Source: Escherichia coli
GTDB lineage: Bacteria; Pseudomonadota; Gammaproteobacteria; Enterobacterales; Enterobacteriaceae
Length of the DNA: 64,000 bases
Direction: 5' to 3' (one strand)
Assembly: GCF_024298765.1 (NCBI RefSeq)
Contig: NZ_CP101210.1
Shown here: piece by piece, positions 1 to 3,000 of the stretch
How the letters are laid out: each line of letters begins with the position of its first letter
Numbering within the stretch: position 1 is the stretch's first letter
Position numbers: made by a program

Positions 1-3000
1 CTCAATCATACAGCTGGTGTAGAGGCTTCGGATGCTGATGCCACTATCACTCTGTCTCGTGATGTATTGAACAAAATTGTACTGAAAGAAGAGACGCTGA
101 AAGAAGCCACGGCCAAAGGAGATGTCAAAATTACTGGCAATGCGGAAAAACTCAACGAGCTGTTAGGTTATATGGATAATTTTGAATTTTGGTTCAATAT
201 AGTGACACCATAAATTTACTGCATACCGGGCAGGTATCCTGCCCTTTTTTGGTTAAAAAATGGCTGAACGAAGAAAAACGCATCACTCATGGAAAACCCG
301 CCGCGATATGGTTATTCGCGGCATGACGATTAGTTTGCCATGGTTTGCTTTTATCAATGTCAGTTTTGCATTGATAATTTTGCTGCGCCGTGTTCTGTTT
401 AATGACCTTACTCCACCCTGGTTAAATGAAAAAAGCCTTATACATTCTATTGATATATCTGCAACGGGTATTCTGCTAATTTGCAGTGGTTTACTACTCA
501 TCCCTCGGCAAAAAACATTACCTATCCAGGTGCTATTAGTTGCCCTGAGCCTGCTATGGTCATGGTGTAGTTATCACTTTATTGCGTACTGGACGCTGCA
601 GTTTGCTTATCCACTATGTGTATTATTAATGCTTAGTGGCGTTGTCGCACTTTATTTCCATACCCCATCATTGCTCGCATTTGTCATTCCCTTATGGTTC
701 ACCACTCCAATAGCGAGTCTTATGCTTAATCAACAGATCAATATTCATTTTGCTGTTGTATGGTGTATTTTTTCACTGGCGCTATATGGTGGGCGACTCA
801 TTTTGTTACGTTGGTTTGAAGAAGCATGGGTACAAAACAGTTATAACAACCAGTTAATTAATCGCCTTGATGCATTAGCACATCGTGATCCTTTAACTGG
901 GATAGCAAACCGACGTGCAATGAACAGTATCTTACACGACGCGATAGATAACGGCGGGTCATTTGCTCTTATTATGCTGGATGTCGATTTTTTTAAACGT
1001 TACAACGACACTTACGGGCATCCTGCTGGGGATCGTTGTCTAATACAAGTTGCCGACGCTCTACAGCGTTCAACTCGCCAGTCGGAGGATGTTGTTGTCC
1101 GTTATGGTGGCGAAGAGTTTGCCATCATACTTTTTAATGCAACATTGCCGGAAGCAGAGACGGTAGCAGCCAGAGTGAAGCAAGAACTTAAACTGGCAGC
1201 TATCCCACATCAGGCATCTGCTGTTAATGCATTCGTTACGGTTAGTCAGGGGATTACCTGTTCTGCTCCCGCAAAAACGGCTGAACAAATTATTTCAGAT
1301 GCCGACGCTGCGTTATACCGGGCGAAAGAAAGTGGGCGAAATCGATGGGCTTTATAAGCATTAGGGGACTGGACAGATTACGTCTCTCCTCGCTTAACAA
1401 GGGCTGACGGAGGGTAATAATTGTCTATAGCTATCTTCTTAGCGATGTCTTTCTGGTATCACATTGGATCGGTGCAATTATTTTTCCTTTAATACCCATT
1501 ATGTTAAGAAATTCAGAAACAGCTGTAATCTCATTGGTTTTTTCATTCGTCTTGATCTTCCAAGGAATCTGACTGTGCATTATTGAGAACACACTAATAA
1601 CGTGAATCGCTCCCTTGCGACGACTCTTGTCATAAGAGTACCGGAGCGTTTTTCCATCAATTGCAATGACGTCTTTATCATCTGAAGAATGGCAGTCAAG
1701 CATCCAGTTAATAAAGCACTCATGAAATTTTGCAGGACTGATACAGGATACAACTCTGGCAATGGTATCGTGAACAGGAATACCATTATCAAAATCACCA
1801 TATTGCTTCAAAAAATCGAGATGTGTTTCCCCAAAATCCTCTATATCTTCCCAGCCTTCTGCACCCGAAATAACGGCACAAATAGTCAACAGTAGAATAT
1901 CCGATAATTTATGTTCCACTTTCCAGGCTTGTCTGTAATCGGGGATAATAGAAATATGTTCCATCAATTTTTTAAGTTCCATTTTGTTCTCCTTAATTAT
2001 GTAAGGAGTATTTGATCATGTATAAGCAATAAAAAACAGCTTTAGATAATGAGGAATATCTCAATTTTTAAACATAAAATGCGAATTATTTAGTACAAAA
2101 AAGCAGCGTTACGTGATCTTTCCATGGAAAAGAGAGTAATACACTGATTTTTAACGCAGATTGCCAGTGCTACCAACACTGACAATCTGCTCACCACAAG
2201 CAACTAACAGAGGTAGTTAATCATGGCTGAACACGATATTACGCCAGAAGTCGCCATTTCCAAAACACAGCGCCGCTATAAAGTCGGCTATGTCAGAGCC
2301 CGCCACATAAACAGCAAAACCTACATGACCACGTACTACTCACGACACCCCAGCCTGAACCTTAAGGGCGACTGGCTGAAAGAGGCCGGATTTGATACCG
2401 GACGGGGTGTCACGGTGAAGATTTCGGAGGGGTGCCTGACCATCATCGCTGACAGTGACGAGGTGCAGGAACTGCGGGAGGAACTTTATCAGGTTAAACA
2501 GGTGGTTAAGGGGATGCGGAACGGGATGTTTAGTGTGCTGAACGAGAATTAAATAATAAAAAAGCCGGGGAGATTTAAAATCTTCCCGGCTTTCTTTATC
2601 ATCTAAAAAGGTAATAATCCTCTAATAGGAGAAAATTTTGTAATATCAATACCTTGTAATTTAAAGTAATTAAAAGCATCTTCTATATTGGAAAACGCAC
2701 TAATTTCTTCAGTTGCATAATCTTCGAACACTTCCATTTTATTTTCTGGTATTTTGAAAAAATAGGTATTGTATTTTTCATCCTGTTTTTTAATGGCATA
2801 TTGGAAAAAATAACTTTCACCATTTATTTCCTTTATCTCATCAAAACCTCTAACCTTACCATTCTCTATAGCAACAATTAATTTTTCAATAGACAAATCA
2901 ACCATCTATATCTATCCTCACCATTGTCCCATCAGAACGTTTAATATTTATATGAGGCAAAGAACCATGCCCTGTGCCTTTATGGTCATCATGACCATAT

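Follow-up and report, generated by a model that had tools for sequence, protein, structure and literature searches.

Positions 1369–2126 of the window, the 64,000-nucleotide stretch of Escherichia coli contig NZ_CP101210.1 (assembly GCF_024298765.1) that was analyzed here, are very probably a dead, immobile relic of an H-repeat (H-rpt) of the ISAs1 family. This ISEc1-like relic has suffered an internal deletion and would be a hybrid; it forms the fixed end, on the side of a GGDEF gene, of a variable T6SS effector island.

Limits of the island and its first cargo genes

Based on gene order relative to K-12 and strain 104, the window covers the E. coli pptA–ansP (RhsE) locus, and its positions 1300–2300 match many complete E. 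coli chromosomes at 100% identity. In the window, the GGDEF gene is followed by the remnant, SymE, two small ORFs, Rhs, the gene for a DcrB-related protein and VgrG, with ansP at the far end. The order in strain 104 is narZ...pptA, an alkyl/aryl-sulfatase, a GGDEF protein, an ISAs1 family transposase pseudogene and a SymE-family toxin, and then two small ORFs, a 1458-aa RHS protein, a DcrB-related protein, VgrG and ...ansP. The RhsE locus of K-12 reads ansP, yncG, yncH, rhsE', ydcD, yncI, ydcC, pptA, where yncI is an H-rpt pseudogene and ydcC an intact H-rpt transposase. An empty site is provided by strain GF131, in which the GGDEF gene abuts yncG and ansP follows. In a BLAST comparison of the GF131 locus with the window, the core matches are window positions 1–1349 and 11971–20226. 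Relative to this strain, the vgrG–Rhs–SymE island spans 1350–11970 (10.6 kb) and stands in place of 742 bp that include yncG.

The core gene that flanks the island encodes a MASE5-GGDEF diguanylate cyclase (260–1357, + strand; Pfam MASE5 and GGDEF). Its last 8 nt (1350–1357: two codons and the stop) derive from the island side, and its C-terminus reads ..NRWAL* in the window compared with ..NRWEK* in GF131. The junction between core and island thus falls at 1349|1350; the homology to the transposase runs out at 1432. The 82 nt between these two points (1350–1431) place the remnant at the distal edge of the vgrG–Rhs island, where the first-pass annotation had put it. This position is downstream of both the Rhs core and the orphan tips. 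The 19 nt between the junction and the outer end of the right-end relic described below (1350–1368) are conserved beside the GGDEF 3' end in OkiPb01695 and PM06121. At the far boundary (11970|11971), the window strain lacks yncG (glutathione S-transferase family) together with 116 bp upstream of it (L003 9651–10392); yncG was found in the empty-site strain, K-12, PM06121 and SC418.

The first cargo gene of the island encodes a SymE-family toxin (2223–2552, + strand; Pfam SymE_toxin, E = 1.8e-20; PGAP). Its start codon at 2223 is overlapped by a SymR-like antisense RNA match (2153–2228, − strand; Rfam RF01809, 48.3 bits, E = 1.5e-7, below the gathering score of 61). Based on this match and the SymE start codon, 2127–2222 belongs to the SymE module and not to the IS. 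The range first assigned to the remnant, 1358–2222, is the whole intergenic gap: it takes in the IS-derived DNA at 1369–2126, whereas its segment 2153–2222 is the SymR-like match and SymE 5' region. The SymR-like match includes a hairpin (GCAGATTGTCAGTG...CACTGGCAATCTGC), and its 3' end lies 26 nt from the left inverted repeat of the H-rpt. An isrA match (Rfam RF01385, 118.8 bits against a gathering score of 51) is positioned antisense inside the SymE-like ORF at 2294–2422 (− strand), and the gene may carry this internal antisense sRNA besides the SymR-like one. The Rfam matches to Ssr1, trpB and others in the window were below their gathering scores. In K-12, symE is SOS-regulated. A CTG-N10-CAG motif (CTGATTTTTAACGCAG, 2144–2159), seen by eye some 65 nt before the SymE-like ATG, could be a weak box of the LexA type. 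The window and K-12 both have the 10-nt sequence CTGCGTTAAA outside the left inverted repeat. Shared ancestry was considered as its source and set aside, given that the sequence falls within the SymR-like match in the window and within yncI in K-12. Two small ORFs (100 aa and about 85–107 aa; 2603–3221, − strand) separate the SymE-like gene from the 3' end of the 1458-aa Rhs gene, and the upstream one overlaps the Rhs stop region. A Pfam search with the two returned no match; from their position, they are probably the immunity gene of the Rhs toxin and/or an orphan tip.

Anatomy of the relic

The remnant contains a truncated transposase ORF of 183 aa (1431–1982, − strand; ORF call, Pfam and tblastn, with a PGAP pseudogene call), and an AAGGAG Shine–Dalgarno sequence is found 7 nt upstream of its ATG. 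The N-terminal DDE_Tnp_1_assoc domain (PF13808) is complete (E = 3.1e-34, profile positions 2–88 of 88). Of DDE_Tnp_1 (PF01609), the start alone is matched (profile positions 3–73 of 200; 18.6 bits, cut-off 23), and the remnant holds neither a complete DDE_Tnp_1 catalytic domain nor a full transposase of ~378 aa. With the intact 378-aa copy (PM06121 ydcC) as the tblastn query, residues 1–169 align in frame at 89% identity and end in ...IKGKII, residues 171–184 align in a shifted frame that includes a stop (window 1473–1432), and residues 185–378 have no significant match in the window. The frame is broken by a 1-nt deletion at 1473/1474, and the frame-corrected reading has a TGA at 1459–1461. 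On the 100%-identical sequence of strain 104, PGAP calls an ISAs1 family transposase that is frameshifted, incomplete and missing its C-terminus. These searches bear out the first-pass identification of an H-rpt/ISAs1 transposase remnant without ~194 C-terminal residues. The breakpoint range it had estimated, 1431–1460, lies close to the frame break and to the end of homology, and the full-length homologue ending at this position that would have spoken against its reading was not encountered: intact homologues at the same locus run to 373–378 aa. Because the region of the last catalytic residue is absent and the second aspartate lies in the broken frame, the relic, as judged from its sequence, encodes no functional transposase and is the remnant of an ISAs1/H-rpt member, not a functional member.

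At the nucleotide level, homology to thousands of intact E. coli H-rpt copies starts at 2126/2127 and stops at 1432. Based on the alignments and the identity profile, the 695 nt in between (1432–2126, − strand) are the left part of an H-rpt/ISEc1-type element and correspond to nt 1–696 of the 1291-bp intact copy. The outermost 13 nt (2114–2126, − strand), CATGGAAAGATCA, are the left terminal inverted repeat; they agree with the consensus CAGGGAAAGATCA at 12 of 13 positions and coincide with the point, 2126/2127, at which the matches of other copies begin. The relic retains this repeat, the promoter/Shine–Dalgarno region and codons 1–169. Beyond the end of the homology, 21 nt without a significant match (1411–1431) form the joint of the internal deletion; spurious short blocks alone align here, and the segment may be degenerate element sequence or filler. 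Beyond the joint is a diverged H-rpt right-end relic (1369–1410, − strand) that is colinear with the final ~42 nt of the intact copy and reads CCGTCAGCCCTTG...CGTAATCTGTCCAG, compared with GCGTCAGTCCTTG...CGTAATCTTGCCCTG at the intact end. Its right terminal repeat at 1369–1382 (CGTAATCTGTCCAG versus the intact CGTAATCTTGCCCTG) is diverged. The right-end reading rests on colinearity and on the 85%-identical OkiPb01695 orthologue of the window tail. This orthologous tail is colinear with the last ~40 nt of the element at a score reached by 0 of 5000 shuffles, and the window tail by itself gives a weaker result, its score being reached by 121 of 5000 shuffles.

In the gapped alignment, window 2126–1432 falls on element nt 1–696 and window 1409–1375 on nt 1250–1284. 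The placement of these two blocks indicates that what was lost is an internal segment of ~530–550 nt (element nt ~697 to ~1230–1249) and that a degenerate right end was kept, rather than that the element was truncated at its terminus. A target-site duplication was looked for around the relic and none was found; on the (−) strand, the left repeat is preceded by ..CTCTTTTC and the right-end relic is followed by TCCCCTAATG.., two sequences that are not repeats. The absence of a duplication is expected if the flanks were swapped after insertion.

Identity to the intact copies is uneven along the relic: ~97% at 2078–1629, 88% at 1628–1579 and 68–82% at 1578–1430. The differences that are common to three aligned remnants begin at ~1716. 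In a pseudogene free of codon constraint, such uneven divergence points to recombination or conversion, and the relic would accordingly be a hybrid of a modern ISEc1-type 5' part and an old, diverged H-rpt fragment. The best non-self matches to the old-type part are about 74–75% identical. An 81-aa frameshift-corrected peptide, used as the query for an intact transposase of the old type, found none in a short candidate list, which contained fragments from the same locus (97–98%) and ordinary H-rpt proteins (at most 75%). The old H-rpt lineage is therefore one that we infer rather than observe.

Intact copies, variable cargo and the origin of the relic

The remnant and its tail are present in 344 of 5426 genomes, with at least 99% identity in 342. 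A search of E. coli with the tail (1345–1440) matched 346 genomes, and in 344 the match extended over 80% or more of the query. In E. coli the tail occurs at the pptA–ansP locus only, and the rest of the matches are intact-copy variants, of which there are three at that same locus. The SymE-type left junction of the window was matched in 74 genomes, a 28Eco12 type in 145 and an SC418 type in 2, these counts being of sequence matches anywhere in a genome. The DNA on the left side of the remnant encodes an RHS protein and a pentapeptide-repeat protein in 28Eco12; in SC418 it contains yncG, a ydcC with a frameshift and a small ORF, and no Rhs gene is annotated in the fetched stretch of this strain. 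Across the remnant, the three aligned genomes that carry it differ very little, with polymorphisms clustered in the first ~170 nt; immediately beyond the left inverted repeat, their sequences are unrelated. Since the DNA adjoining the left inverted repeat is unrelated among the three genomes, one of them without an annotated Rhs gene in the fetched stretch, this comparison indicates that the relic is older than the present Rhs cargo and is not tied to it.

Intact copies at the pptA–ansP locus are found in PM06121, OkiPb01695 and K-12, and the intact element was measured at exactly 1291 bp. In PM06121, the right inverted repeat of the 1291-bp copy (..CTTGCCCTG) is followed directly by sequence that matches the window from 1583 down to 1300, where the alignment to the window ends. 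This stretch is made up of the remnant's diverged 3' part, the tail and the end of the GGDEF gene. The old-type differences in the window start upstream (about 1716–1622) of the point at which the PM06121 old fragment starts (1583), and the window hybrid is thus not derivable from the PM06121 arrangement by one homologous deletion. In OkiPb01695, the intact copy ends in ...CGTAATCTTGCCCTG and is followed directly by CCGTCAGTCCTTGTTAAGAGCGAAGATACGTAATCTAGCCAG, then TCCCCTAATAG and then the GGDEF 3' end; the sequence after the intact right end (from CCGTCAG) is the orthologue of the window tail. The intact right inverted repeat is therefore joined at the equivalent of window 1583 in PM06121 and of 1411 in OkiPb01695. 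In K-12 it is joined 88 nt upstream of the pptA ATG, and strain 104 continues from this K-12 join point toward the sulfatase gene. Nested joins of this kind at the intact right inverted repeat would fit adjacent deletions anchored at the IS end; independent insertions are the alternative explanation for them. A general insertion target resembling the tail was also considered, based on extensions past the right inverted repeat elsewhere (H154–H175), and found no support: in L009, the one that was read directly, the sequence after CCCTG is unrelated and the extension of the alignment is spurious.

Two further features of these strains were observed. In OkiPb01695, a group II intron (L004 5333–6656, with a frameshifted ltrA) lies in the left end of the intact H-rpt and replaces or disrupts its left inverted repeat. 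In PM06121, PAAR, VgrG, M35 peptidase and hypothetical genes (L005 2727–7548) are found in place of the Rhs gene, and this cargo is still bounded by an H-rpt adjoining the GGDEF gene. Cargo that lacks Rhs and is nevertheless bounded by an H-rpt marks the site as a general T6SS effector hot spot, not an Rhs site alone.

In the explanation that we prefer, an old, diverged H-rpt fragment anchored beside the GGDEF gene would have given rise to the 3' part and the tail, and modern ISEc1-type copies would have overwritten the 5' ~400–500 nt or recombined with it. The likeliest reason that the cargo at the left inverted repeat differs between strains would be homologous exchange within this 5' homology, and the right inverted repeat of the intact copies would have reached its nested end points via IS-end-anchored adjacent deletions. 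We infer the order of events, a contribution of homologous exchange to the turnover of cargo, and deletions adjacent to the IS end. The present role of the relic would be passive at most, as a homology patch. A stronger proposal, which we regard as tentative and rather doubtful, is that the relic is a fixed docking patch at which incoming H-rpt-ended T6SS effector cassettes replace the resident cargo. One crossover would then fall inside the ISEc1-like 5' ~500 nt of the relic and a second on the ansP side. Such a process would account for the mosaic, for at least three unrelated cargo types at the left inverted repeat and for the crowding of polymorphisms near that repeat; if it were true, the H-rpt would be a functional recombination module of Rhs/vgrG islands and not mere debris.

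Three other explanations have to be weighed against the hybrid relic with an internal deletion. A single edge-making deletion or rearrangement could have removed the C-terminal half together with the right end, such that ~1432 would be the scar of the island. The missing match to residues 185–378, the distance of just 82 nt from the remnant to the core junction and the PGAP label "missing C-terminus" all agree with such a simple terminal truncation. It is nonetheless unlikely, given that 1369–1410 is colinear with the last ~42 nt of the element, that the same diverged fragment and tail lie outside an intact copy in PM06121, that the core junction is at 1349|1350 and not at 1432, and that the break is identical in the three aligned remnant genomes despite their different cargo. 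The first-pass annotation had taken the truncated remnant as the probable mark of a rearrangement or deletion scar at the island edge; the loss is instead internal to the element, whose diverged last ~42 nt, with an IRR-like CGTAATCTGTCCAG, are kept at 1369–1410. The mosaic, in turn, might be an artefact of uneven constraint, in which one old copy decayed in place with a slower 5' part and no recombination took place. A gradual climb in divergence, from about 0.5% to about 8% to about 25%, is what such decay would leave, and the N-terminal part of the K-12 yncI subfamily was judged by eye to be comparably divergent, which counts against it. Uniform divergence would also be expected of a pseudogene without codon constraint, and the non-coding left 144 nt are likewise ~97% identical to the intact copies. 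Decay of a single copy is therefore regarded as quite improbable.

Domestication has the least in its favor and is considered highly improbable: the 183-aa ORF would be expressed as a truncated protein that acts as a DNA-binding regulator or as an inhibitor of H-rpt transposition. The ORF is indeed open and preceded by AAGGAG 7 nt upstream of its ATG, its DDE_Tnp_1_assoc N-terminal domain is complete, and conservation is at least 99% in 342 genomes. This conservation, however, would also fit recent common descent or spread by recombination and does not imply purifying selection. In addition, the frameshift, stop and deletion in the 3' part are typical of decay, the last 14 residues are out-of-frame read-through, and PGAP calls the ORF a pseudogene. 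The hybrid, internally deleted relic remains the reading that accounts best for the locus.

Significance and comparison with known H-repeats

The significance of the feature is small: it is an IS pseudogene that standard annotation flags, and it is already annotated as such, dead H-rpt copies at Rhs loci being a kind of feature that has long been described. Its comparative anatomy is modestly useful in that it sets the island boundary at 1349|1350 and places the break inside the element. It also brings together, at one locus and across about 5400 genomes, fixed H-rpt relics, nested end-anchored joins and turnover of T6SS effector cargo. H-rpts, including defective and tandem copies, were reportedly described as accessory parts of Rhs loci by Zhao et al. 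in 1993 and Hill et al. in 1994. The E. coli W genome paper (PMC3032704) positions the H-rpt after the Rhs core and the C-terminal tips, lists b1455–b1461 as an Rhs site and states that transposition of an H-rpt has not been observed. Nothing substantive differs between this accessory structure and the arrangement described here, where the relic is also found in strains without an Rhs gene in the fetched stretch.

Among known elements, the relic resembles H-rpt/ISEc1 (K-12 ydcC, which is H-rptE, yhhI and ybfD) in its homology over nt 1–696, which reaches ~97% in the first ~500 nt, and in sharing the left inverted repeat and the N-terminal DDE_Tnp_1_assoc domain. It lies at the same chromosomal locus as K-12 ydcC and in the same orientation. 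In contrast to the intact H-rpt/ISEc1 elements, it lacks ~550 internal nt, carries a frameshift and a stop, and has a diverged right end and a 3' part that is 70–80% identical. Its closest counterparts in kind are K-12 yncI, beside ydcC at RhsE, and ybfQ/ybfL at RhsC, which are likewise degenerate H-rpt pseudogenes at the distal ends of Rhs loci and which stand in tandem with, or adjoin, intact copies. The left-end variant of the window is 95.5% identical to a sequence annotated as ybfQ. K-12 yncI, unlike the window relic, belongs to a different H-rpt subfamily, and the relic adjoins the GGDEF gene, whereas K-12 lacks that gene.
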